Below, piece after piece: positions 24,218 to 60,518 of a DNA stretch of 64,000 bases. Every line of letters starts with the position of its first letter. Positions within the stretch are counted from its first letter, which is position 1. Source of the stretch: an uncultured Gammaproteobacteria bacterium (lineage in GTDB: Bacteria; Patescibacteriota; Microgenomatia; UBA12405); the NCBI GenBank assembly GCA_964544275.1, contig CAZIZX010000003.1, positions 43,705 to 107,704 of the forward strand, in the 5' to 3' direction. Below the pieces are notes generated by a model. That model saw only the letters and a program-made list of their open reading frames with translations, did no database searches and was not told where the DNA came from. A program made the translations under genes and the position numbers.

Positions 24218-24261
24218 AACACAACTGTACCGCAGGGTTTAAGGAAGTCTAGGAGATGTAA

Positions 24262-27534: not shown

Positions 27535-27617
27535 AAAAAAACTCCTTAAAGTAGTAATATTCCCGGCCCTGTGCCTGGAACGGATCTACTTTCGGAGTTT
27601 ACAGGTTAAACACCTAA
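27535..27617 (-). promoter_or_regulatory. Conserved 83-nt leader upstream of ParB-MTase (copy 2)
   Basis: Reverse complement is about 95% identical to 8721-8803. Confidence 0.55.
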
Positions 27618-31591: not shown

Positions 31592-31592
31592 A

Positions 31593-32828: not shown

Positions 32829-33547
32829 TTTGATGCAACCTTTGTATCTCTCTTTTTAACGGCCTCTTTGGCACTGTCAGGTAAAGCTTCGTAGAAACCA
32901 CCAACTTCTTTTGGTTCAGTGATCATTTTGTCCGCAACAAAATTTAGTAACTCAAACAGTTTAATTACTCTTTCTGGTTCTTCTTTCAAATTGATTTCCC
33001 CAGGATGAACACCGCTATTCCCAGTTATTCTTAAAGCATCTAAGGATTTTTGGACTAATGGGTTAAGTCCTTTTTTTACCAGGTTACCGATATCATCGTT
33101 GATGTTTTCTCCCTTTTCACCCAATTCTTTACACAGCTTTTGGAGTGCTAATCTTAATATTGCTGCAGCGGCTCTTGGAGATTCACTAAGAATATTTGCC
33201 GCTTCCAAATAATCTGATTTTATATCTTCACTTAAGTCATCGTTCGGCTGTTGAACAATGATTTTTTTTGGATAAATCATCTGAGTATCTATCCAAATAG
33301 AAAAATTATTACAGTGGCCACAAAAAGAAACAGTCCAGAGCTCACCTAACTTTGCCGAATGTTGTGCTAATCCGCAAATATTTGATTTTTTTACATATGA
33401 GTTATATTGTCCTCGAACTGAATAGTTATCTCCGACGGCTTCAATGTGTGACCAACTTTGATGAGCAAATACACCACAATGAGGACAATGAAATTGACCT
33501 GTGGCGTGCTGTGGAGGATAGTATTTTTCTGCCATATTTTTGATCAT
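32825..33547 (-). CDS. Zn-ribbon plus DUF4145-domain protein embedded in Type I R-M operon
   Basis: N-terminal CPHCG...CGHC zinc ribbon. The C-terminal AAAILRLALQKLCKELG...LDALRITGNSGVHPGE resembles DUF4145. Confidence 0.5.
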   Translation of the reverse strand: MIKNMAEKYYPPQHATGQFHCPHCGVFAHQSWSHIEAVGDNYSVRGQYNSYVKKSNICGLAQHSAKLGELWTVSFCGHCNNFSIWIDTQMIYPKKIIVQQPNDDLSEDIKSDYLEAANILSESPRAAAAILRLALQKLCKELGEKGENINDDIGNLVKKGLNPLVQKSLDALRITGNSGVHPGEINLKEEPERVIKLFELLNFVADKMITEPKEVGGFYEALPDSAKEAVKKRDTKVASK

Positions 33548-33683
33548 ATTGAGCCGAAGCTCATAATGTTATTTAACGTTAAATTACGGTGTTTTGTAAG
33601 TTGACTACTTGACATATGTTTTACTTAGTCATATAATCATAACTGATACTAACTGTATCATAAATCGATGGCTTAGGGGCTCC

Positions 33684-34457
33684 TCAGTGAGTCCCTTTTG
33701 CGTTTTTAAGGGCATTTTTTGCCTTGTCAGAGATCTCTCTCTGCCAACAAATAAAGTCTTTAATTTTCCAAATTTCGAACACAAAAACACCAGTAGCATT
33801 AAGTTCTGGAGCAATCCTTCCGGAAGTGGCAAAGATTACCACTTGTTTTCCGTCTTGGATAAGTTGCTCAATTGGGTCAGCAAAGTCACTATCACCACTC
33901 CAAAGAATGAAATTTTGGACTCCATTTCTTTCAAAATCCAAATACATATCACGACCCATTTCAACGTCAAAATTACATTTCCATTGTTCAACATATTTTG
34001 TCCCTGCTTTGTTTAACTCAAGCAGTTTATTGTTGAGAAACTTGATCGTTTCAACGTCTAATTTATTTAGTAGAGGTTTCTTAATAAAGTTTTGAAGCAC
34101 TGCAGGGGAGCCGTCAGGAGTACCGGATACGTCAATTGAAAGACGCATTCTTTTAATTGGTTTGGTTTTTACAACATAACCGTGCTTTTGGGCTTGATTA
34201 ATTATTGCTTCTGAAAATTGATCTCCGGGAACAGTACCATTGTAAAACCGTACGTTTTTAATTGTGTCAAAAGAGTCGAGGAATTGTTTCAGTCGTTCTA
34301 GATCAATATGCCAGCCTAATTTTTCCGACCAGTGGAACACATTGGCAAAATCAATATAAACGTTTGATGGTTTATCAAAAATACTTTCTAACTGAGTAAT
34401 TGCTTCTGGGTAAAGTTTAGAAAATGCATTTATTTTGTCAGTTTTTGGTTTAAACAT
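33684..34457 (-). CDS. NYN/LabA-like (DUF88) PIN-fold ribonuclease domain protein
   Basis: VYIDFANV and FILWSGDSDFADPIEQLIQDGKQVVIF match the conserved NYN acidic motifs. Confidence 0.6.
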   Translation of the reverse strand: MFKPKTDKINAFSKLYPEAITQLESIFDKPSNVYIDFANVFHWSEKLGWHIDLERLKQFLDSFDTIKNVRFYNGTVPGDQFSEAIINQAQKHGYVVKTKPIKRMRLSIDVSGTPDGSPAVLQNFIKKPLLNKLDVETIKFLNNKLLELNKAGTKYVEQWKCNFDVEMGRDMYLDFERNGVQNFILWSGDSDFADPIEQLIQDGKQVVIFATSGRIAPELNATGVFVFEIWKIKDFICWQREISDKAKNALKNAKGTH

Positions 34458-34460
34458 AAT

Positions 34461-35972
34461 TTATTTAATTCCTAAATCTTTTAAATACCCGTCCATTTCT
34501 TTCTCCAGTTTTTCTAGCTCTGGCTTGAGGGCCTCTAACTCCCGGAGGTTGGCAGCGATATCAATCGGGGCTTCTTCCTCGAAGGTGTCCACGTATCGGG
34601 TGATGTTTAAATTGAAGTCATTTTCTTCAATCTCGGCAAAATCTACCTTACGGGAGAATTTATCTACTTCTTGGCGATTAGCATAGGTGTTATAAATTTT
34701 TTCAATATTTTCATCTGATAGAGTGTTTTGAGCCTTACCTGGTTTAAATTCTTTTGAAGCCTCTACAAAGAGAATATCCTTTTTAGATTGATTGGCACCG
34801 CCACTTTCCCGAGATCTATCGATTATTAAAATGGCGACCGGAATGCCTGTGGTTTGGAAAAGGTTAGCAGGTAGACCAATGACAGCATCGATAATATTTT
34901 CTTTTAAAAGAGATTCACGAATTTTCCCTTCAGCTCCACCCCTAAATAAAACTCCATGGGGAACAATGACAGCCCCTCGGCCAGTTTTTGGTTTTAAAAC
35001 CTCAACCATGTGGGTGATAAAGGCATAATCACCCTTATCCTTTGGAGGTACTCCCCGGAAAAAACGATTGTAAGCGTCTGACTCAGCGTTTTCTGCCCCC
35101 CATTTTTTAAGGGAAAACGGAGGGTTTTGGACGCAGGTGTCGAACTTCATCAGCCGATCGTTTTCGACTAAAAGCGGATTGTTTAAGGTGTCACCCCATT
35201 CAATTCTGGCCGAATCCTTGCCGTGTAAAAACATATTCATCCTAGCAAGTTGGTAAGTGCTTCCTTTAGATTCTTGACCATAAAGTACGTAATTATTTGA
35301 CCCTTGAGCTTCAACTTCAGCACCGGCAAGTAAAAGTAGACCACCTGATCCGCAAGCGTTATCTACTATTCTGTCTCCCGGTTTTGGTTGAGCGAGTTTG
35401 GCTACCAATTTTGATACTTTACTTGGCGTGAAGAACTCTCCCGCTTTCTTTCCAGCATCGGCCCCAAACTTCTCGATCATGTACATATAGGCATTGCCCA
35501 TAACGTCATCATCCACCTCACTCAAATCAATCTTGTGAAAGTCACTGATTAAATTCCGAATCATTTTGTTGCGATTTTCCAGCTTGCCTAAGACTGATTC
35601 AGAATTAAAATCGATATTAAAAATTCCTTCAAGTTTAGATCGGTTAGCTTCTTCAATTTTGTCCAGAACTTTATTTAATTCCTCACCAATATTGTCATGT
35701 TCGATTATCGAATAGATATATTCAAAGGAAGTGTTTTCGGGCAAATAAAAACGGTATAATTTCAGTTTTTCTTCAATCCGTTGAGTATCACTTCCAAATC
35801 TTTCTTTATATTCCTGTCTTTTTTTATTAGAAAGATCGCTTAAATATTTATAAAAAAGCATTGCCAAGGCATAGTCTTTGTAAACCCCAGCATCAACTGA
35901 TGTCCGAGAGGAGTCAGCGGCCGACCAAAGCACTTTGTTCAATTCCTGTTGGTTGTATTTTTTTGGAGCCAT
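34461..35972 (-). CDS. hsdM: Type I restriction-modification N6-adenine methyltransferase M subunit
   Basis: HsdM N-domain, SAM motif DNACGSGG, and catalytic NPPF (VQNPPFSLKKW). Confidence 0.9.
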   Translation of the reverse strand: MAPKKYNQQELNKVLWSAADSSRTSVDAGVYKDYALAMLFYKYLSDLSNKKRQEYKERFGSDTQRIEEKLKLYRFYLPENTSFEYIYSIIEHDNIGEELNKVLDKIEEANRSKLEGIFNIDFNSESVLGKLENRNKMIRNLISDFHKIDLSEVDDDVMGNAYMYMIEKFGADAGKKAGEFFTPSKVSKLVAKLAQPKPGDRIVDNACGSGGLLLLAGAEVEAQGSNNYVLYGQESKGSTYQLARMNMFLHGKDSARIEWGDTLNNPLLVENDRLMKFDTCVQNPPFSLKKWGAENAESDAYNRFFRGVPPKDKGDYAFITHMVEVLKPKTGRGAVIVPHGVLFRGGAEGKIRESLLKENIIDAVIGLPANLFQTTGIPVAILIIDRSRESGGANQSKKDILFVEASKEFKPGKAQNTLSDENIEKIYNTYANRQEVDKFSRKVDFAEIEENDFNLNITRYVDTFEEEAPIDIAANLRELEALKPELEKLEKEMDGYLKDLGIK

Positions 35973-35973
35973 T

Positions 35974-36549
35974 TTAGTTATTAGAATTTAAAACATGTAA
36001 TAATGAACTTTCGGAAATAGTGGATAAAATTGAAATTTTTTTACTTAACAACTCTTGTTGTTTTACTATGCTCTTATAGAGTCGAGATACTTTCAACTGT
36101 TCGTCTTTGGATGGGGTTTCAACCACTAAACCCTCTAGGTTATATTTGGGAATTGATTTGATGTAATTGCCACTGCTTAGTCTTTCTAATTGAGATTGGC
36201 CTGATGGTGAATTTAAAAAGATTGATAAATATTCGGGACTAATCAAGTTTTTATTTACCCGGAGGACAAAAACAGAAGAGGATGCGATAGTTGGCACTTC
36301 TACTTTAACCACAGCCGCCCGATATCTTCCTCTAGAGGAGAGGACGACATCTCCACTTCTTACTATTGTGTTTTCCGGAAGCTTATCTGCCATTATTTTG
36401 GTTAAGTTTTCATCTTCAAAAACGAACCCGGCTCCAATATCTTTAGCCTGAATTACCTGGTAGTTACCATTAACATCTGGTACAAGGGCCGATCGAAAGG
36501 TGTACCCGGTGACGATATTTGCAATTTCACTTAATTTGTATGAGGTCAT
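35974..36549 (-). CDS. single-TRD (half) Type I specificity subunit
   Basis: One TRD plus a C-terminal coiled-coil conserved region, at 191 aa. Lies directly upstream of hsdM. Confidence 0.6.
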   Translation of the reverse strand: MTSYKLSEIANIVTGYTFRSALVPDVNGNYQVIQAKDIGAGFVFEDENLTKIMADKLPENTIVRSGDVVLSSRGRYRAAVVKVEVPTIASSSVFVLRVNKNLISPEYLSIFLNSPSGQSQLERLSSGNYIKSIPKYNLEGLVVETPSKDEQLKVSRLYKSIVKQQELLSKKISILSTISESSLLHVLNSNN

Positions 36550-38481: not shown

Positions 38482-40044
38482 GTGATTTTTGTGGTATTAT
38501 TCATCATAATGAAAGTTTCGAAAAAAGAATATTCTATAGTTAGAAAATTAAAAGAGAAACGGGAAAGACTGGGATTTCCTTCTCTAAAAACAACAGAATT
38601 GTTTTCTTCGAAAATAAAAAATGACCAAGATACACCTTCAATCAACATATTAGAACAGGTATCGGCCTACTCAGAAAATGAACTAAAAATTATATTGTCG
38701 AAACTTACGGGATTACAGCTTACAGATGGCTGTAATGGACGATGTCCGTTTTGTTTTTTGGGGACAAAAAAAGGAGTTACGTCAAAATACTCCTTTGAAT
38801 CTATAAAGATGTTCTTGAATAAGTATTCAAAATACATGCCCGGAACGACTGCGTTATATTGGGATTCTGATCCTTTCGATTATGTTGATGGGAGTTTTAC
38901 TTTTACAGATGTTTATACAGTCTGGGACACATTAAAACCGAACGATCGCAAATATGTGTCTACTGCTATTCCAAGAGGCGACGAAAATAGTTTTGTTAAT
39001 TTTATTGAGTATCAATTTGTTGCTTACCTAAACAAGAAAGAACCGCTGCCATTGAGGATAAGATTGTCTTTATCTAAGTTTAATATTCAAAGAGTTGAAC
39101 TAGTTTTTAAAGAGATTATTCGATTACTTGAGAAAAAGTATCCCAAACTTTTAATAAGTAAGTTTTTAAGAAAGCATATTGTCTTAGCCAATACTTTTGA
39201 TGATGAGGTAGTCACAATCGGTGGATTAATTGATCAACACGATGACATCAAGGACATCTTTACACCTGCTTGTAAAGATGGCACGGTTATATCACCAAAG
39301 TCGATAAAAGCAGTAATGGTGACCATACCAACGAAATATGAACCGTCTGGTCAGAAACAAATAGAACTTATTCCTAAAAAAGTAGAAAATTTGGTACCAC
39401 ACTATCACCATATAATTGACCATTCTGGTTTTTTTACCAAGGACTCACTCGAGAAGAAATTGATAACTGGTCAAGTTATGTTGGATATTATTCGTAAGCA
39501 CGATGGAAACTTTTTCAACTTGGAGGACAAGATTGACAATATCATATTAAAAATGGCTAGAGAAATTGCTTCAGTCGGAAGATTGATAATTGACCTTTCT
39601 TTCTTATATTCACATCCGAAAACAATTATGAAATCTGAAGAACTTAAAAATCGATATCTTAAAGTTGTTACTCACGTTTATTTAAAAAGAAGAAAAGATG
39701 TCGTAAAGTTAATTGAAACATCTAAAAAAATACTTGATACAAAAAAAGAACCAAAAAAAGAGGAACTCCAATATTATAAGTACCTAGCAACTATTTATCT
39801 AAAAAAAATAGACTATTTAATTGAATTGATCAAGTCAAAAACACCCATTGATAGACTCAGTGCAACAGCTGATTTACTTTCTCAAATAGAAGGAAAACAT
39901 ATGGATAAGATCGATGTGATCATTAAAGGACTTCGGGAAAGCAACTTTGGTGCTATCAGTAAGATTTTTTCCAAAAATTCTAAGTATAAAGGACAACCTG
40001 CGTGGTATGAAACTGCTGAATACTTATGTTCCCAAGCTAATTAG
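38482..40044 (+). CDS. radical SAM domain protein (520 aa, long uncharacterised C-terminal extension)
   Basis: CxxxCxxC in GCNGRCPFCF. Convergent with the minus-strand rSAM operon. Confidence 0.6.
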   Translation: MIFVVLFIIMKVSKKEYSIVRKLKEKRERLGFPSLKTTELFSSKIKNDQDTPSINILEQVSAYSENELKIILSKLTGLQLTDGCNGRCPFCFLGTKKGVTSKYSFESIKMFLNKYSKYMPGTTALYWDSDPFDYVDGSFTFTDVYTVWDTLKPNDRKYVSTAIPRGDENSFVNFIEYQFVAYLNKKEPLPLRIRLSLSKFNIQRVELVFKEIIRLLEKKYPKLLISKFLRKHIVLANTFDDEVVTIGGLIDQHDDIKDIFTPACKDGTVISPKSIKAVMVTIPTKYEPSGQKQIELIPKKVENLVPHYHHIIDHSGFFTKDSLEKKLITGQVMLDIIRKHDGNFFNLEDKIDNIILKMAREIASVGRLIIDLSFLYSHPKTIMKSEELKNRYLKVVTHVYLKRRKDVVKLIETSKKILDTKKEPKKEELQYYKYLATIYLKKIDYLIELIKSKTPIDRLSATADLLSQIEGKHMDKIDVIIKGLRESNFGAISKIFSKNSKYKGQPAWYETAEYLCSQAN

Positions 40045-41224
40045 TTTTGTTATTTATTATCACTAATGGAGTCTCTGTTTCTTCTGGTGTTAATCCTCCA
40101 TGATTACCAACACAATTCCTTTTACTTTCTCCAAGCTCTTTCCACCAGAATTGATATCCAGGCTCAGGTAATATTAATATTTCTCCTATACTATCAATGT
40201 ATTGAGATGAAACATGTTTTTTGTCTATTGGATCTGTTTTTATAAAGTCACTAACTAAAACAACCTTTGCTTTATCAGCTAATGATTCTAATAGTATGTT
40301 TCTTACCTGTTCAACATAGGGTTGTTCTATATAGAGGGAGACGTCTCTTCCTGATCCGCCAGGAACTAATGGGTTATTATCAGACCCTTTTCTAAAGTAT
40401 TTTCGTATTTGATAAATATAATCATCGAGATCTAAAGTGTTAGGACAATTTATCTGTCCGTGGTCTGAACATATAATTAGTTCAATCGGTTTTTGACTGG
40501 CATCAATTGGCTTAAGAACATAACTTTCGACTAATGAAAATAAATTATCTAAAGCAAGTCCAAACTCTGTCGAGTCGTAACCGAACTTATGAGAAATTTT
40601 ATCTAATTTGTCATAATACATAAAATAATATCCTGGAGTAGTTTTATTAAGAACATCGGAAATTATGTCAGCCATTGCTGTTTCAGGTTTTGAATATCCG
40701 TTGATCTGCGAACCAACACACATGGATTTTGAGAATTCTGAATTAATCAAGTTTTCAGATAGATAAACTCTGCTTGGGACATTTATATTTTTTAATTCTA
40801 GATAAATTGTTTTTGTCGAAAAAATGTCTGAACTTTTAATACCTTTACGACTAAGCTGATTGTAAGTTGTGTCTCCGGCAAAGGAGAACATGAGCGGGGA
40901 AATGGTTCTTCCAACTAACCGGTTAAAATACAGCCACTCGGTTACCCCCGTTTGGTACACCGTCTTGCCTTGAATAGTCGATAAATGCGCTGGAGTTGAT
41001 GAAGGAAGAAGCGAATGGTTTTTGTAGATTTGACTTCGGTTTACCAAGCTCTGAAGTGAAGGTATTTGGCTAACATGTTTATCTAAGCTGTTCCAGCCGA
41101 ACCCATCAATAAATAAAAGTATGACCTTACTCTCTGTTGTAGAACTGAATATACCTTTAATATAATGGGGAAGATCACTAAAATTAAATTCAGAAATAGT
41201 GTCTGAAAGTTTACTATTTGCCAT
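40037..41224 (-). CDS. alkaline-phosphatase-superfamily type I phosphodiesterase/nucleotide pyrophosphatase-like enzyme
   Basis: LLFIDGFGW, the nucleophile region LLPSSTPAHLSTIQG (cf. T-F-P-N-H-y-S-I-v-T-G), and the metal ligand CSDHGQ. Confidence 0.6.
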   Translation of the reverse strand: MANSKLSDTISEFNFSDLPHYIKGIFSSTTESKVILLFIDGFGWNSLDKHVSQIPSLQSLVNRSQIYKNHSLLPSSTPAHLSTIQGKTVYQTGVTEWLYFNRLVGRTISPLMFSFAGDTTYNQLSRKGIKSSDIFSTKTIYLELKNINVPSRVYLSENLINSEFSKSMCVGSQINGYSKPETAMADIISDVLNKTTPGYYFMYYDKLDKISHKFGYDSTEFGLALDNLFSLVESYVLKPIDASQKPIELIICSDHGQINCPNTLDLDDYIYQIRKYFRKGSDNNPLVPGGSGRDVSLYIEQPYVEQVRNILLESLADKAKVVLVSDFIKTDPIDKKHVSSQYIDSIGEILILPEPGYQFWWKELGESKRNCVGNHGGLTPEETETPLVIINNKTN

Positions 41225-42200
41225 TTTTGATAGTCCTTAGTATTCCTTTTGCAGTTTCTATACACTTGATATAACCATCGTTATTGTAGGTCTCATTTGA
41301 CTTTAATCTTTTTATAAAATCTTCAATTTCTCTTTTATAAAGTTCATTTGAATCATCACTATAACTTTTTAGAGTTTTATTTGAGTTAATGACTTCTAAT
41401 AATACGGTCCCGTCAATCTTTGTAGACACACGGTATATATGTTTCTTTCCAACAAAACATATCTCCAACAAATCATTACCTTGGGAATAAGAAGCCGATG
41501 AAATTACGCCAATACAATTATCTAATTTAAATACCAAGGTTTCAGAGTCACGTAAACTGCAGTTTGGCTCAATTACTTTATTTATCAGAGAGTTACTAGA
41601 AACAAAAGAAAGAGGTTTGACAGATTTCTTCAAGATATATTCACAGTAGTCTATAAAGTGCATTGCTTTTTCATATGAATTTCCACCAGATAACTCATGA
41701 TCCAATTTCCACTCCTGAAAAGGGGGTGAGGAATATCTAATTGCGTGAATGTATCCAATTTCATCATCGCTAATTAATTTAACCAAGCGGTCATTAAAGT
41801 TTAAAAAACGCCATTGATACCCTATTTTTACATGTATGTTTTTATTGTCTTTAAGACATTGAATCAATTTATCTTGGTTTGCGGTTAAAGGCGGTTTTTC
41901 AACGAAGTAGCTGATATCTTTTTTAATTAGTGCTTTTTCATATTCATATCTAGCGAAAGGTGGGGTGCAAATAAATACAATGTCCGGACTTTCAGAGTTC
42001 AGCCAATCTTGAAAATCAAAGTATAGTTTTCCAAAAATATTTTGACAATAACTTAATTGCTTATTAGAATAATCTTTAAATTTTGGATTAAAACAACTCG
42101 TAATTTCTAAGCTATCTAATATTTTTTTTAAAATTGCAGCATGGGCTCTGGCTATTAATCCACTTCCAATAAATGCAATTTTAAAGCGTTGTTTAGACAT
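41214..42200 (-). CDS. Gfo/Idh/MocA-family NAD(P)-dependent oxidoreductase
   Basis: N-terminal Rossmann motif KIAFIGSGLIARAH, with the typical length and topology. Confidence 0.7.
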   Translation of the reverse strand: MSKQRFKIAFIGSGLIARAHAAILKKILDSLEITSCFNPKFKDYSNKQLSYCQNIFGKLYFDFQDWLNSESPDIVFICTPPFARYEYEKALIKKDISYFVEKPPLTANQDKLIQCLKDNKNIHVKIGYQWRFLNFNDRLVKLISDDEIGYIHAIRYSSPPFQEWKLDHELSGGNSYEKAMHFIDYCEYILKKSVKPLSFVSSNSLINKVIEPNCSLRDSETLVFKLDNCIGVISSASYSQGNDLLEICFVGKKHIYRVSTKIDGTVLLEVINSNKTLKSYSDDSNELYKREIEDFIKRLKSNETYNNDGYIKCIETAKGILRTIKNGK

Positions 42201-43507
42201 TATTGACTTAAAAATTCCTCATAAGCCCATTTTGCTAATTTTTCAAGTCTTTCTCTGGTAAGGCTGGTATTACCAGAAACATTCCGTTCGTTGTAGGATT
42301 TATTGCTGTACCACTGCCGATCGTCGATGACGATACCATATTTTTCCGGTTCATCCCCCAATGCAGTTCCCGGAAAAGGTGTTAGAAGATTAAATGAAAC
42401 CATTTGGGGATTGATTTCCTTGGCGATTTTGACAGTGTTTCTAACTGTCTCTTCTGTGTCGCCTGGTAAGCCAAAAAGAAATGAAGCATGAAGAGCTATG
42501 TTATATTCTTTTAAAATTTTAGCAGAATCTTTGAGCATATTTGGGTTTACCATCTTGTGGATATTATTTAATATTTCAGGTGAAAAAGATTCAAAACCAA
42601 CAAAAACTCGATAGCAACCAGAATCTCTCATAAGTCTTAACATCTCCCGAGTCTCTTTACTATCAATCAACCTGTCTGCTCTGATATTACATGACCATTT
42701 CAGTTTTATTCCCTGATCAATAACTTTTTTTGAAAATTCAGTAATTCTTTCTTTTTTAACCCCGAAGTCTAAATCAGAAAAAAATATTGAATCAAATCCA
42801 AGCGATAGAACTTCTTTTATTTCTTCAATAACTTTATCGATATTTCTAAATCTTAGGCACCTGTCCATTGAGCTACTTTGACAAAATAGGCATCGATTAG
42901 TGCATCCTCTTGCCGCCTGTACGATTGTTTCTTTATCCTTTTTAAGGTATTCCTTTATTGGGAATAAATGTCTTGCTGGAAAAGGCAAATTGTCTAAGTT
43001 AGTAATTGGTTTTTCATCAGGATTTTTAATAATTTTATTGTTTTCGCGATAAGTAATTCCTTTGACTTTTCGTAAATCACCATTACTGTTTAAAGTTTTT
43101 ATGAGGTTAAGTAATACGATTTCTGGTTCATATCTAATAATAAGATCAATTTCCGGATTATTTTCCATCGTCTCAAGGTCCCGAAATGTAACATGAGCTC
43201 CAGTCATTACTATCATGAGATTTGGAAATTTTATTTTTAAATCTTTGGCAAGTTGGAGGGCAAAATAAAAGTCGCGTGTTTGAAGGACGGTATTTTCTGA
43301 ATTTATTACAATAAAGTTATACTGGTTTTTCTCAATCAGTTTGAACAGCTTGGTATTAGATATATCTTTAACTGCTAAGTCAACAATGCCATGATTTATA
43401 GAGTTACTCTCTAATATTGCTGCGGCGTATGCCAAACCTAAAGGCAAGTGAGTTATTCCGAACTTTACTGGAAATCTGGAATTGATTAAAATTGGCTTTA
43501 CTGTCAT
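42200..43507 (-). CDS. B12-binding (class B) radical SAM enzyme
   Basis: N-terminal cobalamin-binding-domain pattern (LPLGLAYAAAIL...IVDL), and rSAM CxxxCxxC in GCTNRCLFCQS. Confidence 0.8.
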   Translation of the reverse strand: MTVKPILINSRFPVKFGITHLPLGLAYAAAILESNSINHGIVDLAVKDISNTKLFKLIEKNQYNFIVINSENTVLQTRDFYFALQLAKDLKIKFPNLMIVMTGAHVTFRDLETMENNPEIDLIIRYEPEIVLLNLIKTLNSNGDLRKVKGITYRENNKIIKNPDEKPITNLDNLPFPARHLFPIKEYLKKDKETIVQAARGCTNRCLFCQSSSMDRCLRFRNIDKVIEEIKEVLSLGFDSIFFSDLDFGVKKERITEFSKKVIDQGIKLKWSCNIRADRLIDSKETREMLRLMRDSGCYRVFVGFESFSPEILNNIHKMVNPNMLKDSAKILKEYNIALHASFLFGLPGDTEETVRNTVKIAKEINPQMVSFNLLTPFPGTALGDEPEKYGIVIDDRQWYSNKSYNERNVSGNTSLTRERLEKLAKWAYEEFLSQ

Positions 43508-43761
43508 TTTTCCAGCACTCCCAGTTTGTCTAATTTACTTATAAAATTTTGAAGTTCTTTCTCGACAGTTGAAGAATCAACGTCATACTTACTTACCAAT
43601 ACCGTCACTATTTCTTCACTTGTCTTTCCTTCTTTTAACAAAAGAAACATTTCACTGGCAGTTCCATTAAATTCATGAAAAAAATCCCTATCAGGATCAA
43701 AAATTAAAATTGTGTCATTTTGATTTGTTCTAACCTTAACTGAATTTGATATTTTTACCAT
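43504..43761 (-). CDS. PqqD-family peptide-binding protein (RiPP recognition element)
   Basis: TILIFDPDRDFFHEFNGTASEMFLLLKEGKTSEEIVTVLVSKYDVDSSTVEKELQNFISKLDKLGVL matches the PqqD pattern (LN.TA..IW.LLDG..T..EI...L...Y.V......DV..FL..L...GL). Confidence 0.7.
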   Translation of the reverse strand: MVKISNSVKVRTNQNDTILIFDPDRDFFHEFNGTASEMFLLLKEGKTSEEIVTVLVSKYDVDSSTVEKELQNFISKLDKLGVLEK

Positions 43762-43762
43762 A

Positions 43763-44767
43763 TTATTTTTGATTTAATAAATAATTACATCGAAAGTCTA
43801 ATCTGTTTTTATCAGCAAATGAAAACCCTTTACACCCGCCTTGACACAGCTCAACATATTTACATGATCGGCATCGAGTAGAAACAGGGAATTCTTTTTT
43901 CATAAAGTTTTTAACTTTTTTTAAAATTGAATCAAAATCTTCTTGATAAGCATTCCCGAGACTTTTCGGTAAAAAATTACATGGCTGAACGTCCCCGTTC
44001 GGTAAAATTGAAACCCAAAGTTTTCCGGCCTGGCAGATATTCTCATCAATCATTTGGTGTCGCTCAATTTTATTTAAAAAACGATGATCCATTTGTGAGA
44101 TTACTAATGGATCATGAAACCCAATAATTATCTTGTTTTGATATTTCTGTTTATAATCCCAGATCTTGTCAACAATGTCGTGATACTCAGTTGAAGTAAA
44201 GCTATATTCATCATGGATCCCGTCGGATGATGGTCTAATCATTAAAAAATCAATTTCTTCAAGTTTGTTTTCAACTGAAAATTTAATAAAATCTTCGAGA
44301 TGGTTATAGTTATGTCGATTGATAGTTGTATTTACGCCAGTTTTAAGACCGTTTTTTTGACTGTTTTTTATTCCCTCTATAGCCTTTTCCCAAGCAAAAG
44401 GTCTTCTTCTTAGATTATTATGGTATTCACTATCCAGCGAATCTAAACTGATTTGCACCTTATTTAGACCTTTTGAAAAAAGTGATTTTGCCTTATCATC
44501 TGTTAAAAAGAATCCATTCGATAAAAGAGTTAAGTAAAAACCTTTTTCATGGGCATACTGAATTATCTCTTCAAAATCTTCTCTGATTAAACTTTCTCCA
44601 TGAGTAAAAATTAGCTTAATAACTCCATGCAAAGCCAAATCGTTAATTAACTTTTTTATCTGGGATAAAGGTACGTCCGCGACAATCTTTTTGTGGACGT
44701 AACAGTGCTTACAATTAAGGTTGCATTTGTAGGTTACTCCAAAAAATATCTGGTACGGATATTTCAT
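43763..44767 (-). CDS. radical SAM/SPASM-domain peptide-modifying enzyme
   Basis: N-terminal CxxxCxxC (YKCNLNCKHCY). C-terminal SPASM cysteine cluster (CQAG...PCNF...CRSCKYVELCQGGCKG). Confidence 0.8.
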   Translation of the reverse strand: MKYPYQIFFGVTYKCNLNCKHCYVHKKIVADVPLSQIKKLINDLALHGVIKLIFTHGESLIREDFEEIIQYAHEKGFYLTLLSNGFFLTDDKAKSLFSKGLNKVQISLDSLDSEYHNNLRRRPFAWEKAIEGIKNSQKNGLKTGVNTTINRHNYNHLEDFIKFSVENKLEEIDFLMIRPSSDGIHDEYSFTSTEYHDIVDKIWDYKQKYQNKIIIGFHDPLVISQMDHRFLNKIERHQMIDENICQAGKLWVSILPNGDVQPCNFLPKSLGNAYQEDFDSILKKVKNFMKKEFPVSTRCRSCKYVELCQGGCKGFSFADKNRLDFRCNYLLNQK

Positions 44768-44790
44768 TTGTGGTGGTATTATACCAAAAA

Positions 44791-44814
44791 ATATCCGCCA
44801 TTTACGGCGGATAT
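44791..44814 (-). terminator. Perfect 9-bp stem hairpin (atatccgcc/ggcggatat) followed on the minus strand by a T5 run; candidate attenuator between precursor ORF and rSAM-SPASM gene
   Basis: The palindrome is seen directly. It lies 19 nt after the stop of the 20-codon ORF and about 25 nt before the rSAM-SPASM start. Confidence 0.45.
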
Positions 44815-44833
44815 TTCGCTCTGTTACGCTATT

Positions 44834-44896
44834 TTAGCAATGCAAACGGAGACTTCTTGTTCGGATTACGGGTTTTACCCACTTGGATTTTTGCAT
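44834..44896 (-). CDS. unannotated 20-aa ORF MQKSKWVKPVIRTRSLRLHC, candidate precursor peptide
   Basis: ATG preceded by AAAAGGAGTCAT (a consensus SD with 5-nt spacer). TAA stop. Sits immediately upstream of the rSAM-SPASM/PqqD operon on the same strand. Confidence 0.5.
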   Translation of the reverse strand: MQKSKWVKPVIRTRSLRLHC

Positions 44897-44973
44897 ATGA
44901 CTCCTTTTAGATGCTAATAACAATTACATTATACACCTTATTTTTGCTAAAATACCATATTTAAAGGCGATAT

Positions 44974-46239
44974 ATGACACTAATCAATACCTTACCACCA
45001 AAAGGCATGCGGGACTTTTATCCTGAGGACTACAGAGTAAGAGAATGGCTGTTCAAAATCTGGAGAGATACGGGCATTAAATATGGGTTTGAAATGTATG
45101 ATACTCCGGTAGTAGAGAGTCTATCACTATTAGTCAGGAAGGCTGGAGAAGAAATAACCGACCAGATTTACTATTTTAAAGATAAAAGTGACCGTGAATT
45201 GGCCTTGAGGCCTGAACAAACACCTAGTCTAGCGAGAATTGTTTTGTCCCGAGAAAATGAATGGGTATATCCACTTAAATTGTCCGCCACAGTTCAATGT
45301 TTCAGATATGAAAAAATGTCAACTGGTAGAAAAAGGGAGCATTTTCAATGGAACGTAGATATTATTGGTGATGCAACTCAATTAGCCGAGGCTGAAGTGC
45401 TATCGACTGCTGTGGAGTCTATTAAAGAAATGGGCTTAGATAGTACTGATGTGGGAATATCAGTTGGCTCCAGACAGCTAATAGCAGATTTATTAAGATC
45501 GAAGAATATCAATGAGTCTGATTATGTGAACATATTTTTAGTATTAGATAAGAAAGGTAAAGTATCAGATGAAGTACTTAAGGAAATGTTAATAGAAAAA
45601 GGTATATCAGAAGAAGATATTGGTAAAGTTTTTGAAATATTCGCTATTAAAAATTTTGAAGAGGCAAAAAAAATTGTTGGTAATAAATCACTTGGTGCCA
45701 ACCAACTGGATAATTTATTTCAGTATGCAAAACTATATGGCATTAGTGAATTTCTGGAGTTTAATATTGGGATTGTAAGGGGACTAAACTATTACACGGG
45801 AATTGTTTTTGAAGCTTTTGACAGACAGAGGAAATTTAGAGCAATATTTGGAGGAGGTCGGTACGACAACCTACTCGAATCCTTCGGAGGTAAAAAAATT
45901 CCTGCTGTTGGGTTCGGATTCGGTGATGTAGTAATTCTGGAAGTGTTAAAAGAATTAAAGAAAAATCTACCGGAAAAAAGGAAGCTGGACTACGTTGTTA
46001 CTTACTCTGATGGAAATCTCGAGAATAAGGCTATTAAATTATGTATAAGTTTGCGTAACAAGGGTAAGACTGTTTATATGATACCTGGCGAGACAAAGAT
46101 GAAAAAATCATTAGCCATGGCAGATAAGATGAATGCGGATTATGTAGACATTTTAGACCCCATAGAAATGGATCAGGGGAAATTTATCGAAAAAAACCTA
46201 AAAGAAAGAACTCAGGAAGTGTTGGACTTCATGGTGTAA
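44974..46239 (+). CDS. hisS: histidine--tRNA ligase
   Basis: Class II aaRS motifs: N-terminal LPKGMRDFYPED, motif 2 region, and motif 3 GGGRYDNL. Confidence 0.85.
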   Translation: MTLINTLPPKGMRDFYPEDYRVREWLFKIWRDTGIKYGFEMYDTPVVESLSLLVRKAGEEITDQIYYFKDKSDRELALRPEQTPSLARIVLSRENEWVYPLKLSATVQCFRYEKMSTGRKREHFQWNVDIIGDATQLAEAEVLSTAVESIKEMGLDSTDVGISVGSRQLIADLLRSKNINESDYVNIFLVLDKKGKVSDEVLKEMLIEKGISEEDIGKVFEIFAIKNFEEAKKIVGNKSLGANQLDNLFQYAKLYGISEFLEFNIGIVRGLNYYTGIVFEAFDRQRKFRAIFGGGRYDNLLESFGGKKIPAVGFGFGDVVILEVLKELKKNLPEKRKLDYVVTYSDGNLENKAIKLCISLRNKGKTVYMIPGETKMKKSLAMADKMNADYVDILDPIEMDQGKFIEKNLKERTQEVLDFMV

Positions 46240-46940: not shown

Positions 46941-48743
46941 TTAAATGCTAACTTTTTTAACCAAGTCTTCAATCATTTTATATCCGTCAAGCCAGAATTC
47001 CTCTGAATTTATATTCATACCTAAATCAATTAATAGTTCTTGAGGATTTTTTGAATTACCAGATGATAATACTTTTTCAATTTGTGAAACGATATTTCCC
47101 CGTCTGTTTTTAAATTGAGAATAAATTGAATAAGAAAGTAGTTCGCCAAAGTTATATGCGTAACAATAGAAAGGAACTTCAAACAAATGTCTGATGCAAG
47201 CCCATTCGTATCGGAAAAGTGGGTCAATCTGAACTACTTTACTGTACTGTTCTTTTTGCAAGTCAAAATATATTTGACTTAGAATTTCTGGATCTGTACC
47301 ATCCCTAAGATATTCAAATGCTCTTATTTCGAATTGAACTAAGAATATCTTCTTAATCGTCATAGAGTAGGTATCTGTTAGTTTCTGCGATATTATTGAT
47401 GCTTTAATTACAGGATCTGCCTCCATACTTAAAAGGTGATCAAAGACTATCATCTCGGCTAAGTTGGAGGCTGTTTCAGAAAGTGGCAAACTAGATTCTT
47501 GAATAGACGGATACAAATTTCCAGAATACATTGAATGAATTGCGTGACCTACTTCGTGCGCCAGGGCAAACACATCAGAGACTTTATTGTAATAGTTTAT
47601 AAATACATATGGAGTTACCTTAGGGCTGACAGTTTCGCAAAAGGCACCATATTGTTTATTTGCATGAGGAAGGTAATCTATGTGCTGAGATTCGAATACT
47701 AACTTTCCAAACTCATAAAACTTAGGGCTAAAGCACTGGAATGAGTCTAGAATTAACTCTTTGGCTTGTTTAAAACTAATGGTTGTTTCTTCTTTGTTTA
47801 CCGAGGCATGGGTATCAAAACGACTTAATTTATTTAATCCCAACTGTTCTGCTTTATATTCAAAAAGAGGATTAAAAATCTCCTTCTTTTGATAAGCTAG
47901 TTTTAATAACAAATTCACAGTATCTCCAGAAATATCATTATCGAAATTGCGAACCGAAATAGGACTGTTATAACCCCTTAGTTCTGATTCTCTAGTCCAA
48001 TCTTTTACTAGTGATTGATAAACGAGAAAATGTTTATTAATATCGTTTCTATATTTTGTCAACATATGTTTATAAGCCTGATCCCTTAATTGACGGTTGG
48101 AGTCATACGTATAAGACATCAAGTCTGACTGTGATAGGGTTTTTATAGTATTTTTATCAATCTTAAGTTTAAATCTATAATCATTAATCAACTGATTCCT
48201 TAGCTCAAGCAACGAGTTTAGTCCTATTTCATCTTTATGTTCGATAATACTTTCTTCTTTATTGCTAAGTCTATGTTCATAAGCTTCTTTCTTATGATTT
48301 ATAAAATACTTACAAGTTGGGATTGATTTTAAAAGTCTATTGTAATTTTCTAGGTCTAGGGTAGGTTTGTTTTTTATGCTTATTCCAGTTAGCCATTTAT
48401 CAATATCACCTATCTGTTCGTTTACATAAATGATCAACTCGTTTGCTTTATACCTTAGTTTTTTTAACGTTAGATCGTTCTGATCAACACAAATACCCAA
48501 ATCTATTCTGCTAATTAATTTCTTTGAATCACTTGTTACTTCTTCTTTAGATTCAAAAAATTTAACAAAGTCTTCTGTCGACACTTCCGGAGTAATCTTT
48601 ACCCATGTGGAAAGCAGGTTTTCAAGTTTGGTTTTTAATTCATGACACAAAGTGTCAAACTTATCCAATGGATAGATATCATCTAAGTTCCACTTACCAA
48701 TTTTTATTCCCTGTTTCTTAGATATCTTGGGCATTTTGCTCAA
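46941..48743 (-). CDS. pepF: M3-family oligoendopeptidase F
   Basis: HEXXH in LAHEVGHAIHS. Length and motif spacing are typical of M3B PepF. Confidence 0.8.
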   Translation of the reverse strand: MSKMPKISKKQGIKIGKWNLDDIYPLDKFDTLCHELKTKLENLLSTWVKITPEVSTEDFVKFFESKEEVTSDSKKLISRIDLGICVDQNDLTLKKLRYKANELIIYVNEQIGDIDKWLTGISIKNKPTLDLENYNRLLKSIPTCKYFINHKKEAYEHRLSNKEESIIEHKDEIGLNSLLELRNQLINDYRFKLKIDKNTIKTLSQSDLMSYTYDSNRQLRDQAYKHMLTKYRNDINKHFLVYQSLVKDWTRESELRGYNSPISVRNFDNDISGDTVNLLLKLAYQKKEIFNPLFEYKAEQLGLNKLSRFDTHASVNKEETTISFKQAKELILDSFQCFSPKFYEFGKLVFESQHIDYLPHANKQYGAFCETVSPKVTPYVFINYYNKVSDVFALAHEVGHAIHSMYSGNLYPSIQESSLPLSETASNLAEMIVFDHLLSMEADPVIKASIISQKLTDTYSMTIKKIFLVQFEIRAFEYLRDGTDPEILSQIYFDLQKEQYSKVVQIDPLFRYEWACIRHLFEVPFYCYAYNFGELLSYSIYSQFKNRRGNIVSQIEKVLSSGNSKNPQELLIDLGMNINSEEFWLDGYKMIEDLVKKVSI

Positions 48744-55825: not shown

Positions 55826-55841
55826 CCCGACATTCTTCTAT

Positions 55842-57465: not shown

Positions 57466-57492
57466 AAGTCTATTATAACCAAGCTCTTATTT

Positions 57493-58332: not shown

Positions 58333-58451
58333 TTATGTATCCATTATAACCTTTTACCCCCTTGACCATTTACCACCGCTTACTTACAATATTAGCAGTC
58401 TGCCCCGACGAGTGATAAAATAGTTAATAATTATTATTGTAATTTAATCTT

Positions 58452-58751: not shown

Positions 58752-58766
58752 ATTATTAATTATTAA

Positions 58767-60425
<1,659 letters not shown>

Positions 60426-60447
60426 AGGCTGTTAACACAAAAATTAA

Positions 60448-60475: not shown

Positions 60476-60518
60476 TCCTATTAATCCCTTAATTTGTTAA
60501 AATAGACTGTCTTACCAA

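Follow-up and report, generated by a model that had tools for sequence, protein, structure and literature searches.

Pathways for RiPPs (ribosomally made, modified peptides) that depend on an RRE and a radical SAM (rSAM)-SPASM enzyme are the closest described systems to the locus reported here. Those compared were PqqE/PqqD, MftC/MftB, the sactipeptide and ranthipeptide maturases, and Haft's GeoRSP, SCM and HPr-rel-A. As in these systems, a short precursor gene lies directly 5' of genes for a seven-Cys rSAM-SPASM enzyme and a PqqD-family RRE, in a translationally coupled operon with a hairpin 3' of the precursor gene. Unlike them, the locus is reached by no curated model at cutoff, its precursor stands outside the known precursor families and carries a lone Cys as the last residue, a B12-binding rSAM is an obligatory part of the core, and the tailoring is of the sugar type. 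Mycofactocin (MftA-F) shares with the locus a small, well-conserved peptide, a PqqD-type RRE, an rSAM-SPASM enzyme working at the extreme C-terminus (here as a proposal), small-molecule-type tailoring downstream and the lack of an exporter. It differs in that the MftC model scores far below its cutoff, the tail is X-Cys here and Val-Tyr there, homologs of MftD, MftE and MftF are missing from the locus while a B12-rSAM is present, and the locus is very narrowly distributed, with no occurrence in the Actinobacteria.

Microcin C, albomycin and agrocin 84 are familiar examples of Trojan-horse action or self-resistance, and the albomycin, agrocin 84 and mupirocin clusters contain resistant copies of aminoacyl-tRNA synthetases (aaRSs). 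Self-resistance through an aaRS gene in the biosynthetic cluster is a well-established concept, as is Trojan-horse action by peptidyl aaRS inhibitors (tiarin preprint, 10.64898/2025.12.02.691738). The likeness of the present cluster to the inhibitors compared (microcin C, albomycin, agrocin 84 and trifolitoxin/tiarins) lies in the proposed logic only, together with genetic linkage to the matching aaRS. The logic in common would be a ribosomal, basic carrier peptide whose C-terminal chemistry presents an amino acid as an aminoacyl-adenylate mimic. The MccB/ThiF-like adenylyltransferase, C-terminal Asn, MccC-type exporter and MccE/MccF-type immunity gene of microcin C are missing here; in their stead there are rSAM enzymes, and the specificity residue is not fixed but varies (His, Gly, Pro).

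A further point of comparison is SinC of sinefungin biosynthesis, like the B12-binding enzyme of this locus a class B rSAM of about 430 aa. SinC joins an amino-acid carbon to C5' of adenosine and is thus a precedent for a class B rSAM that adenosylates an sp3 carbon and does not methylate it; its pathway makes amino-acid-nucleoside conjugates, with cryptic phosphorylation and dephosphorylation steps including a phosphatase step (bioRxiv 10.64898/2026.05.21.726688). The two enzymes are just 21% identical over 385 aa, SinC acts on free L-Arg and on no peptide, and none of the corrinoid adenosyltransferase, kinase, PEARLs and MFS exporter of the sin cluster is found here.

Results

Organization of the operon and its core enzymes

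The window, that is, the whole stretch of 64,000 nucleotides analyzed, comes from a Patescibacteria bacterium, a host that makes an earlier guess of a reduced genome reasonable. The features considered are the following.

44834..44896, minus strand: precursor peptide gene, 20 codons and a stop, reading MQKSKWVKPVIRTRSLRLHC
44786..44816, minus strand: stem-loop between the precursor and maturase genes, 11-bp stem and 6-nt loop, then a U-run
43763..44767, minus strand: radical SAM/SPASM maturase, 334 aa, with CxxxCxxC and a seven-Cys SPASM motif
43504..43761, minus strand: stand-alone PqqD-family RRE, 85 aa (PqqD 46.6 bits, gathering score 23.4)
42200..43507, minus strand: B12-binding (class B) rSAM, 435 aa (B12-binding 39.0 bits, Radical_SAM 77.3 bits)
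41214..42200, minus strand: Gfo/Idh/MocA NAD(P)-dependent oxidoreductase, 328 aa (Pfam 52.0 bits)
40037..41224, minus strand: AlkP-superfamily type I phosphodiesterase, nucleotide pyrophosphatase-like, 395 aa (Phosphodiest 76.9 bits)
38482..40044, plus strand: 520-aa ORF converging on the operon, with an 8-nt overlap
44974..46239, plus strand: histidyl-tRNA synthetase (HisRS), 421 aa (TIGR00442 hisS, 319 bits, cutoff 287)

The six minus-strand genes run from 44896 to 40037 in the order peptide, rSAM-SPASM, RRE, B12-rSAM, oxidoreductase and phosphodiesterase, and their junctions overlap or abut by 1–11 nt, which is consistent with a single operon. The sequence-only reading had proposed this operon, and every ORF was recovered where it had been placed, with all five enzymes above their Pfam thresholds. 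The PqqD and SPASM assignments, on which that reading had been made to depend beforehand, were borne out by the HMM scores (46.6 and 32.5 bits). None of the five enzymes reached any NCBIfam cutoff. Judged from these sequence comparisons, no curated system for a RiPP or cofactor corresponds to the cluster, in agreement with the earlier view that no textbook RiPP class fits.

The maturase scored 98.3 bits against Radical_SAM, and its seven SPASM cysteines (C245, C263, C299, C302, C308, C312 and C327) are invariant. Its best NCBIfam model was NirJ2 (171 against a cutoff of 500); other scores were 153/400 for GeoRSP, 107/265 for MftC, 96/381 for PqqE, 96/650 for WgkB and 90/625 for StsB. The best-scoring models include the decarboxylase-type NirJ2, AhbD, MftC and BlsE, and the nearest solved relatives include the thioether or crosslink formers SkfB, SuiB and CteB. 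The RRE reached no specific PqqD subfamily cutoff in NCBIfam, and its gene follows that of the maturase directly in every locus with DNA. The B12-rSAM, kept wherever the locus extends far enough to reveal it, passed no NCBIfam model (HpnJ 194/578, BchE 180/481, PhpK 146/600), and its nearest PDB entries, AprD4, TokK, OxsB and CysS, are all distant. Since its two best models, HpnJ and BchE, are non-methylases and both far below cutoff, the C-methylation expected earlier cannot be assumed for this enzyme.

The precursor peptide gene

An AAGGAG ribosome-binding site lies 5 nt 5' of the 20-codon ORF. Homologous short ORFs were found at loci L001, L002, L004, L007, L016, L018, L019, L020 and L021, and one is present in every homologous operon with visible upstream DNA, as the proposal of a linked peptide gene had implied. 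The family motif is W-x-K-P-x-x-R-x-R-S-L-x-x-X-C-stop: its segment W-x-K-P-x-x-R-x-R-S-L is strongly conserved, the next three residues vary, and the Cys at the end is invariant. The penultimate residue of the window peptide is His, and the last residue is its one Cys. The short ORF recurs 5' of maturases of just 41–44% identity, and its differences fall mostly at codon position 3 (121/84/251 at positions 1/2/3; 173 synonymous against 120 non-synonymous). Hence, the 20-codon ORF evolves like a coding sequence and is more than a chance ORF. Across a conserved 12-residue segment, the window and L004 peptides are 92% identical, against 44% for their maturases. A 44-bit back-translated motif, for which 0 hits were expected from shuffles of the window, gave just 3 hits in 241 M metagenome records, all three directly 5' of a homologous SPASM and PqqD pair. 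No match to known precursor families was obtained, and the conserved segment resembles a recognition motif.

The stem-loop 3' of the precursor gene folds at -27.4 kcal/mol (z = -4.05; 0/200 shuffles equally stable) and likely works as a terminator or attenuator, fixing the ratio of precursor to enzyme. Comparable hairpins of different sequence follow the precursor in L002, L004 and L021; none was found in L007, L016, L019 and L020, four of the eight loci when the window is included.

Distribution and variable neighbors

Peptide, SPASM enzyme, PqqD and B12-rSAM occur together in seven or eight lineages of two phyla, Patescibacteria and Cloacimonetes. At 50% identity the tiny maturase family falls into six clusters among 1.84 billion representatives, with one hit in 185,579 species genomes. 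The co-conserved core is therefore the peptide gene, the rSAM-SPASM enzyme, the stand-alone PqqD-type RRE and the B12-rSAM. The expected co-conservation of the genes held for this core across both phyla, and did not extend to the phosphodiesterase, the oxidoreductase and the 520-aa ORF. No exporter, dedicated leader peptidase, or immunity gene of the acetyltransferase or peptidase type was found in any of the clusters.

The oxidoreductase (best NCBIfam model IolG-like, 66 bits against 355) is present in four lineages, with homologs 37–51% identical in the L002, L007 and L020 clusters. The phosphodiesterase matches its Pfam profile over the full length (positions 1–341 of 342), and in the PDB its one match, to ENPP7, was weak; its homologs are confined to L001 and L002, the window's own lineage. 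In their place other lineages have a NodU/TobZ-type carbamoyltransferase, another SPASM enzyme, a 135–146-aa protein or Amidohydro_2, the last in L002 and L004. The oxidoreductase, the phosphodiesterase, the carbamoyltransferase and Amidohydro_2 belong to sugar- or small-molecule-type families and are shuffled between lineages. With one enzyme in one lineage, another in four and the rest substituted, the tailoring set is variable and does not form a fixed pathway.

The 520-aa ORF had been counted as a third rSAM of the cluster. Its Radical_SAM match (residues 79–127) scored 20.8 bits where gathering requires 29.5; the CxxxCxxC cysteines, invariant in its own family, make it a probable divergent rSAM. 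No homolog was found in any related locus; in distant loci, homologs are placed elsewhere, with their own 41–42-aa upstream ORF. Its membership of the cluster is thus unsupported, and it belongs to a separate small family.

A flanking aaRS matches the peptide tail

Almost all loci have a class II aaRS gene beside the cluster, a feature that the sequence-only reading missed, as it did the match described below. In the window it is the HisRS gene, transcribed divergently with its ATG 77 bp from that of the precursor; the protein is of the eukaryote/archaeal type, with intact motifs and no obvious active-site anomaly. All flanking aaRSs scored over their equivalog cutoffs (HisRS 319 and 310, GlyRS 607 and 594, ProRS 576 bits). 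They look canonical, and each of these reduced genomes may possess no other copy. A HisRS was also noted at the P0011 locus.

The precursor tails read RLHC, QMGC and KSPC. A His-Cys tail goes with HisRS in the window lineage and L020, Gly-Cys with GlyRS in L004 and L021, and Pro-Cys with ProRS in L007. The penultimate residue thus equals the specificity of the flanking aaRS for three of three amino-acid types, in five informative loci with no counterexample. The orientation is divergent upstream in the window, co-directional downstream at the operon end in L020 and L021, and convergent in L007. L019 (tail RLHC) shows no aaRS in the roughly 1.2 kb flanking it on each side. Lineages of the same tail differ in their tailoring sets. 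A rough estimate of the chance of the tail match is (1/20)^3 x 3 for the choice of position, about 4e-4, on top of which adjacency to an aaRS would arise in roughly 5% of loci at ~800 genes; the correlation rests on three amino-acid types, and certain loci are related by descent, as with the GlyRS proteins of L004 and L021 (76% identical).

Discussion

The earlier interpretation stood as to an RRE- and rSAM-dependent peptide cluster, and not as to the third rSAM, the tailoring genes and the assumption of methylation. Tentatively, we favor a new, rare and uncurated family of RRE-dependent rSAM RiPP type, in which a C-terminal X-Cys would become an aaRS-directed warhead or ligand and the adjacent aaRS would be its matched partner. 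PqqD would bind the conserved segment and present the C-terminal X-Cys to the rSAM-SPASM enzyme, which together with the B12-rSAM would rebuild the terminal Cys, and the variable enzymes would then tailor the outcome. The product would hold amino acid X, via its carbonyl, on a modified Cys-derived group, a geometry that would mimic an aminoacyl-adenylate; against the cognate aaRS the product would work as microcin C, albomycin, agrocin 84 or tiarins do. The match between penultimate residue and aaRS suggests that the product is aimed at that synthetase. As matched immunity or target gene, the aaRS would have to travel with the cluster, and the window HisRS would be this partner for the ...His-Cys precursor. 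In one concrete, speculative version a nucleoside is attached to the Cys, so that X-CO-NH-CH(COO-)-CH2-C5' would be isosteric with X-CO-O-PO2(-)-O-C5'. This would explain the nucleoside- and sugar-type tailoring enzymes; it lacks homology support, given the low identity to SinC and the missing corrinoid adenosyltransferase and kinase. To our knowledge, no Trojan-horse system lacks a route for export, which counts against an aaRS-directed product here.

The core is equally the textbook arrangement of rSAM-SPASM, PqqD and precursor, so a RiPP unrelated to aaRSs has to be considered, for example with a single thioether (sacti- or ranthipeptide-like) or as a C-terminally decarboxylated, methylated basic peptide; the synthetases and the tail match would then reflect coincidence on top of gene order inherited in small genomes. 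Translation genes are densely packed in CPR genomes, L019 shows no aaRS, hairpins after the precursor are typical of RiPP operons and variable tailoring of natural-product diversification, and SkfB, SuiB and CteB are among the nearest solved relatives of the maturase. Nevertheless, we consider this unlikely, as three aaRS types in different orientations each match the tail residue, a single Cys at the very end is unlike known sacti- or ranthipeptides, and the sugar-type tailoring enzymes are left unexplained.

Less likely still is a cofactor assembled on the last residue or residues of a scaffold peptide, then released and tailored by mycofactocin/PQQ logic, as put forward in the sequence-only reading. 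It would agree with the invariant terminal residue, a peptide more conserved than its enzymes, the absence of exporter and immunity genes, the housekeeping neighbors, the decarboxylase-type models and the small-molecule-type tailoring, in which Amidohydro_2 could release the fragment. Yet one would expect a cofactor that serves client enzymes to occur more widely than this extremely rare and patchy family; moreover, the tailoring set varies, MftC and PqqE models score far below cutoff, MftA and PqqA motifs are absent, and it is left unexplained why the residue before Cys tracks the neighboring aaRS. Even less probable is a short ORF that serves mainly as a regulatory leader or arrest peptide, where scarce charged tRNA stalls the ribosome at the penultimate His, Gly or Pro codon, the downstream terminator does not form, and the operon is switched on, plus the aaRS where it lies downstream. 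The terminator-like hairpin directly 3' of a short ORF in four lineages, the correlation of penultimate codon and aaRS type, the co-directional aaRSs of L020 and L021 and some 15 conserved residues, as in the exit-tunnel arrest peptide TnaC, speak for it. The divergent HisRS of the window and the convergent ProRS of L007 could not be controlled by read-through, however, there is one regulatory codon only, the hairpin is missing from half of the loci, and in every locus the genes after the ORF encode proteins known for binding and modifying peptides of this kind, a PqqD RRE and an rSAM-SPASM enzyme.

The locus thus represents a very rare, previously undescribed peptide-modifying cluster in a tiny-genome CPR/Patescibacteria bacterium, in which the match between precursor tail and neighboring aaRS is a new finding.

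Architecture of the Operon

All of the ORFs described in a sequence-only reading of this DNA were recovered at the same coordinates. The minus-strand operon and the gene converging on it were as follows.

Genes of the operon and its convergent neighbor
44896..44834, minus strand: 20-codon ORF (precursor), reading MQKSKWVKPVIRTRSLRLHC; AAGGAG box 5 nt upstream
44767..43763, minus strand: 334-aa rSAM-SPASM maturase; Pfam Radical_SAM 98.3 bits, SPASM 32.5 bits
43761..43504, minus strand: 85-aa PqqD-family RRE; PF05402, 46.6 bits vs. gathering score 23.4
43507..42200, minus strand: 435-aa B12-rSAM; PF02310 B12-binding 39.0 bits vs. gathering score 32.1, PF04055 Radical_SAM 77.3 bits
42200..41214, minus strand: 328-aa oxidoreductase; Pfam GFO_IDH_MocA 52.0 bits
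41224..40037, minus strand: 395-aa phosphodiesterase; Pfam Phosphodiest 76.9 bits, full length
38482..40044, plus strand: 520-aa ORF, convergent on the operon, with an 8-nt overlap with its end

The operon genes lay in sequence, with junctions that abutted or overlapped by 1–11 nt. The domain assignments of five of the six proteins were above the Pfam gathering thresholds, the exception being the 520-aa protein (Radical_SAM, 20.8 bits vs. 29.5, residues 79–127). The earlier PqqD and SPASM calls were thus borne out, as were those of a B12-rSAM, a Gfo/Idh/MocA oxidoreductase and an AlkP-superfamily phosphodiesterase. The maturase contained a CxxxCxxC radical SAM core and a C-terminal SPASM domain with auxiliary-cluster cysteines, seven of which were invariant in an alignment of 14 family members (C245, C263, C299-x2-C302-x5-C308-x3-C312, and C327). 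The B12-rSAM had a class B architecture, with an N-terminal B12-binding domain and a radical SAM domain.

A stem-loop of 11 bp with a U-run was located at 44816..44786, between the short ORF and the maturase gene (fold −27.4 kcal/mol, z = −4.05); it was clear on folding and was not listed by the consensus terminator scan. A TGGTATAAT box (extended −10-like; window 44768–44790, minus strand) was found right after this hairpin and ~10 nt before the maturase start codon, in the same position in the related locus L002, and a second TATAAT was present ~30 nt upstream of the precursor ATG. This layout suggests that the peptide and the enzymes have separate promoters and that the maturase mRNA is nearly leaderless.

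A Conserved Precursor Peptide Precedes the Maturase

A common motif was shared by eight distinct precursor sequences from the window and the related loci (L numbers), and in all of them a Cys was followed by the stop codon.

Precursor sequences
Window, L001 and L018: MQKSKWVKPVIRTRSLRLHC
L002: ...WVKPVVRTRSLRLHC
L004 (Patescibacteria MAG): MKNQKASALKKASKKAAWVKPVVRTRSLQMGC
L021: MNKIKKATKWVKPVIRIRSLQMGC
L019: ...QWEKPVVRSRSLRLHC
L020: MEKVKKTKWVKPLIRCRSLRLHC
L007/L008 (Cloacimonetes MAG): MKKPKLVKPVVRTRSLKSPC
L016: MKKPKLVKPVIRTRSLKSPC

Nucleotide differences between the precursor ORFs fell mostly on the third codon position (121/84/251 for positions 1/2/3), and synonymous codon changes (173) outnumbered non-synonymous ones (120), the latter being concentrated at five variable positions. 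Such a pattern is the expected signature of a translated, selected peptide. The segment W-x-K-P-x-x-R-x-R-S-L was 92% identical between lineages whose maturases were 44% identical.

As an independent test, the precursor motif was back-translated into a 44-bit DNA pattern, with a chance expectation of zero in the window. Three matches were obtained in 241 million metagenome records, and all three were directly upstream of a homologous pair of rSAM-SPASM and PqqD genes. The proposed linkage of the short ORF to the maturase was therefore upheld, since the ORF directly preceded the maturase gene in every homologous locus with upstream DNA and the motif search matched enzyme-bearing loci only. The viral contigs scanned with the peptide motif gave no match, and the precursors matched none of the NCBIfam and Pfam models, curated precursor models included.

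Core and Variable Genes in Related Loci

Every locus of sufficient length carried the precursor, rSAM-SPASM, PqqD and B12-rSAM genes together, in agreement with the co-conservation anticipated from the window, and PqqD adjoined the maturase in all of the loci with DNA. Beyond this core, the tailoring genes varied between lineages, including the locus of the family-member maturase P0011.

Tailoring genes and the lineages that carry them
Gfo/Idh/MocA (37–51% identity): window, L002, L007, L020
AlkP phosphodiesterase: window, L001 and L002 only
NodU/CmcH/TobZ-type carbamoyltransferase: L004, L021, L019, L020
Second rSAM-SPASM: L019, L020, P0011 locus
Unannotated 135–146-aa protein: L004, L021, L007
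Amidohydro_2: L002 (convergent), L004

The 520-aa protein had been taken as a third rSAM enzyme converging on the operon. The convergence was confirmed, with its 8-nt overlap; membership in the cluster was rejected, as no homolog was found in more than 20 related loci (in L002 the convergent neighbor was an amidohydrolase instead) and distant relatives lay in unrelated contexts. This protein is an operon neighbor and not a component. Hence the core of the sequence-only interpretation stood, the third rSAM was removed from it, and the oxidoreductase and phosphodiesterase became optional tailoring genes.

About 29 proteins, in which the CxxxCxxC cysteines are invariant, make up the separate, uncharacterized family of the 520-aa protein. 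In the loci of two distant members, the gene was far from any such cluster and was preceded by its own conserved ORF of 41–42 aa, e.g., MNNNKNVDKETEEKLKKISRLLSELYGKEEEYFRKIKEKKSE. This pair was tandemly duplicated in L023 (7868–9641 and 10180–12037), and the L024 member spanned 7871–9683; in the window, no small ORF was visible upstream of the 520-aa gene (38482–40044, plus strand). The family and its small ORF may constitute another peptide and rSAM pair. A PADLOC search on the 520-aa protein and its neighbors gave no defense-system match.

Comparison With Known Systems

None of the proteins of the cluster reached an NCBIfam cutoff. The best models for the maturase were NirJ2 (171 vs. 500), GeoRSP (153 vs. 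400), and AhbD (149 vs. 500); for PqqD, a lasso-type chaperone (36 vs. 70); and for the B12-rSAM, HpnJ (194 vs. 578), BchE (180 vs. 481), and PhpK (146 vs. 600). C-methylation by the B12-rSAM, suggested earlier, should not be assumed, because HpnJ and BchE are non-methylases and both models scored below cutoff. Among solved structures in the PDB, only distant relatives were found, for the B12-rSAM as well.

The cluster was also distinct from each characterized pathway compared. For mycofactocin, the MftC model (TIGR03962) gave 107.4 bits on the window maturase against a cutoff of 265, MftA ends in ...GVY whereas the precursors here end in X-Cys (X being the penultimate residue), and no MftD, MftE or MftF domain was present in any cluster locus. 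For PQQ, the PqqE model (TIGR02109) gave 96.3 bits against 381; PqqA has an E-x3-Y motif, while the precursor here has no Glu or Tyr motif, and no PqqB or PqqC was found. Sactipeptides and ranthipeptides have a Cys-rich core with several donor Cys, in contrast to the single C-terminal Cys here (in L020, a second one occupies a variable position), and their maturase models scored low on the window maturase (StsB 90 vs. 625, SkfB 77 vs. 300). The same held for GeoRSP (rSAM 152.6 vs. 400, PqqD 19.9 vs. 100), SynChlorMet (ScmF 91.9 vs. 400, ScmD 21.2 vs. 100), HPr-rel-A (PqqD model 20.2 vs. 35), ACGX (105.8 vs. 400), and WGK/tryglysin (WgkB 96.2 vs. 650, WgkC 27.8 vs. 110). The earlier statement that no textbook RiPP class matches was thus supported by MftC, PqqE, StsB, SkfB and the curated Haft-system models, all below cutoff.

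Microcin C has a MccB/ThiF-like adenylyltransferase, a C-terminal Asn, the MccC exporter and MccE/F immunity; the C-terminus here is Cys, and no ThiF, MFS, GNAT or S66 peptidase domain was detected in any cluster. The tiarin system, as published, has neither rSAM nor PqqD (10.64898/2025.12.02.691738). SinC is a B12-rSAM that performs C–C adenosylation in a pathway with cryptic phosphorylation/dephosphorylation (bioRxiv 10.64898/2026.05.21.726688). The window B12-rSAM was only 21% identical to the SinC* sequence in the supplement of that paper, so it was rejected as a SinC homolog beyond the superfamily level and the parallel is one of analogy, not homology. No description of this system or motif was found in the literature searched.

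Judged by sequence, the cluster bears every hallmark of an RRE-dependent rSAM RiPP pathway, yet it belongs to no named family; it is a new predicted RRE/rSAM-SPASM/B12-rSAM RiPP family.

The Penultimate Residue Matches the Neighboring Synthetase

A canonical class II aminoacyl-tRNA synthetase (aaRS) gene was found beside the cluster in almost every locus, and it was the immediate neighbor in the window lineage, L020, L021, L007 and the P0011 locus. The identities of the flanking aaRSs were above equivalog cutoffs, except that the HisRS of the P0011 locus was taken from precomputed Pfam hits only.

Precursor tails and flanking synthetases
Window/L001: tail RLHC; HisRS, divergent, start codons 77 bp apart
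L020: tail RLHC; HisRS, 88 bp downstream, same strand
P0011 locus: tail not visible (no DNA); HisRS, upstream, same strand
L021: tail QMGC; GlyRS, 118 bp downstream
L004: tail QMGC; GlyRS, three genes away, past an IS element and an amidohydrolase
L007/L008: tail KSPC; ProRS, convergent, 93 bp

The residue before the terminal Cys matched the synthetase in all three amino-acid types (His-Cys with HisRS, Gly-Cys with GlyRS, and Pro-Cys with ProRS) and across five informative loci. The P0011 locus was uninformative, as were L002, L016 and L018, whose contigs break off too early. L019 (tail RLHC) had no aaRS, not even a truncated one, within about 1.2 kb on either side. A rough estimate of the probability of this match by chance is (1/20)^3 × 3 for the choice of position, i.e., about 4e-4, and the low prior of an adjacent aaRS comes in addition. 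The two GlyRSs were 76% identical and the two HisRSs 50%. Shared ancestry would account for the consistency within each group, but not for the residue being the amino acid of the synthetase in all three groups.

Peptidases of differing families were observed just past the flanking aaRS: an M3 oligoendopeptidase F in the window (46941–48743, minus strand), an M16 peptidase in L004 (8849–10141), and an S26-like one in L020 (8912–9904). They could serve in peptide processing, or their presence could be coincidental. In the Cloacimonetes loci (L007 1–180/L008 1000–1060), rpmG (L33) and a tRNA-Trp gene directly preceded the cluster, and TyrRS lay two genes past ProRS; this neighborhood was translation-related throughout.

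Proposed Mechanism and Alternative Explanations

Both the genetic architecture and the tail–synthetase correlation are observed; the mechanism beyond them we infer throughout. The W-x-K-P-x-x-R-x-R-S-L segment is the likely RRE-binding element, and the invariant Cys in the last position the likely site of the radical chemistry. Aminoacyl-adenylate mimicry is the principle of microcin C, albomycin, agrocin 84, the sulfamoyl-adenosines and the tiarins. Since the carbonyl of X is joined to the Cys nitrogen, the C-terminus here would be such a mimic if the Cys-derived group resembled phospho-adenosine. Were a nucleoside carbon attached to the Cys β-carbon, X-CO-NH-CH(COO−)-CH2-C5′ would be isosteric with X-CO-O-PO2(−)-O-C5′, and the Gfo/Idh/MocA, TobZ-type carbamoyltransferase and nucleotide-pyrophosphatase-like AlkP enzymes would make sense as nucleoside/sugar-type tailoring. 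An aaRS gene linked to a biosynthetic cluster is a classical sign of self-resistance, and one that served for self-resistance here would have to travel with the cluster. We tentatively propose, as a possible though doubtful reading, a "programmable" CPR family of ribosomal aaRS-directed agents. The penultimate codon (His, Gly, Pro, perhaps others) on a conserved carrier would pick the aaRS, the SPASM and B12 enzymes would remodel the terminal Cys as an adenylate-like group that cannot be hydrolysed, perhaps through C–C attachment of a nucleoside, and the matched aaRS would be the immunity determinant.

Against such a Trojan-horse role, no exporter, leader peptidase or small-molecule immunity gene was found in any lineage, and the flanking aaRSs look normal, in a small sample; a search of the window HisRS for resistance-type substitutions showed intact motifs, a result that carries no weight without a panel of CPR HisRS sequences. 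An ordinary rSAM RiPP without relation to aaRSs, for which the tail correlation would be a coincidence, is rather unlikely. A peptide-derived cofactor, as proposed by the sequence-only reading, is improbable given the extreme rarity of the family, tailoring genes that differ between lineages, and the negative membership results for MftC and PqqE. The short ORF next to a synthetase gene might instead be a regulatory leader peptide that senses tRNA charging; this is the least probable of the explanations, given the divergent HisRS of the window, the convergent ProRS of L007, and the RRE and maturase genes that always follow the ORF.

Rarity, Host and Genomic Setting

A homology search recovered 13 relatives of the maturase at ≥40% identity, the next being at 33%, and the genomic surroundings of most of these relatives were retrieved. 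When the maturase profile was run exhaustively against 1.84 billion 50%-identity representatives, only six clusters were found at 442–502 bits; the next score was 352, and below it the scores fell off smoothly into those of generic SPASM enzymes. A scan of 185,579 species-representative genomes gave one true relative, from a Patescibacteria MAG; six other matches (L010–L015) were discarded as unrelated SPASM proteins (21–34% identity). The exact sequence of the window maturase had no database record.

The window GroEL shared 93% identity with the GroEL of a "Patescibacteria group bacterium" and about 81% with those of Candidatus Shapirobacteria and Woesebacteria, so the host is a CPR bacterium of Microgenomates type, which fits the earlier guess of a reduced genome. 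The window is part of a chromosome, and its right side carries enolase, GroEL and transketolase. Along 54000–64000, which also encodes a PMT-family glycosyltransferase and a tRNA-Cys, G+C rose from about 0.33–0.35 to 0.40–0.44 and the GC skew was strongly negative.

The cluster is at the edge of a mobile/defense island with type I R-M, methylases, an OLD-family nuclease and two diverged, inverted methylase/terminase/recombinase modules. To the left of the cluster (window 394–8663 and 28385–36549), the island held an OLD-family AAA/TOPRIM nuclease, a C5 cytosine methylase, a protein with RNA-polymerase-alpha-CTD and sigma-70 region 4, and the type I R-M genes. The module copies had a DNA identity of 74–77%, and tRNA-Ser, tRNA-Arg and tRNA-Ser genes lay between them at 21.0–21.9 kb.

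Components of the mobile/defense island
28385–31591: HsdR
31593–32828: HsdS
33684–34457: NYN/LabA-like protein
34461–35972: HsdM
35974–36549: half-size HsdS
8700–14900 (plus strand) and 22900–27600 (minus strand): module copies, each with a ParB-N6/N4 DNA methylase (444 aa, 90% aa identity), a 152-aa protein, a terminase-large-subunit-like protein (520/519 aa, 75%) and a large serine recombinase (441/442 aa, 75%)

Biological Significance

Patescibacteria are thought to be nearly devoid of secondary metabolism. The conservative reading alone gives them a new precursor and maturase family, outside the family-specific models of Pfam and NCBIfam and the literature searched, with an unusual obligatory pairing of rSAM-SPASM and B12-rSAM and a terminal Cys as the proposed substrate. 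The aaRS link of the cluster is specific and potentially important; the tail–synthetase match provides an otherwise anonymous cluster with a sharp functional hypothesis, interaction with a specific aaRS. If the programmable reading were true, aminoacyl-adenylate mimics would here be made by radical-SAM chemistry for the first time, in a family that is also the first of its kind whose target is genetically encoded and switchable. Should the aaRS hypothesis hold, the cluster would offer a natural scaffold for redirecting an antibiotic warhead to another synthetase, perhaps by a single codon change. It would also hint at how episymbiotic CPR bacteria manipulate or compete with neighboring cells.
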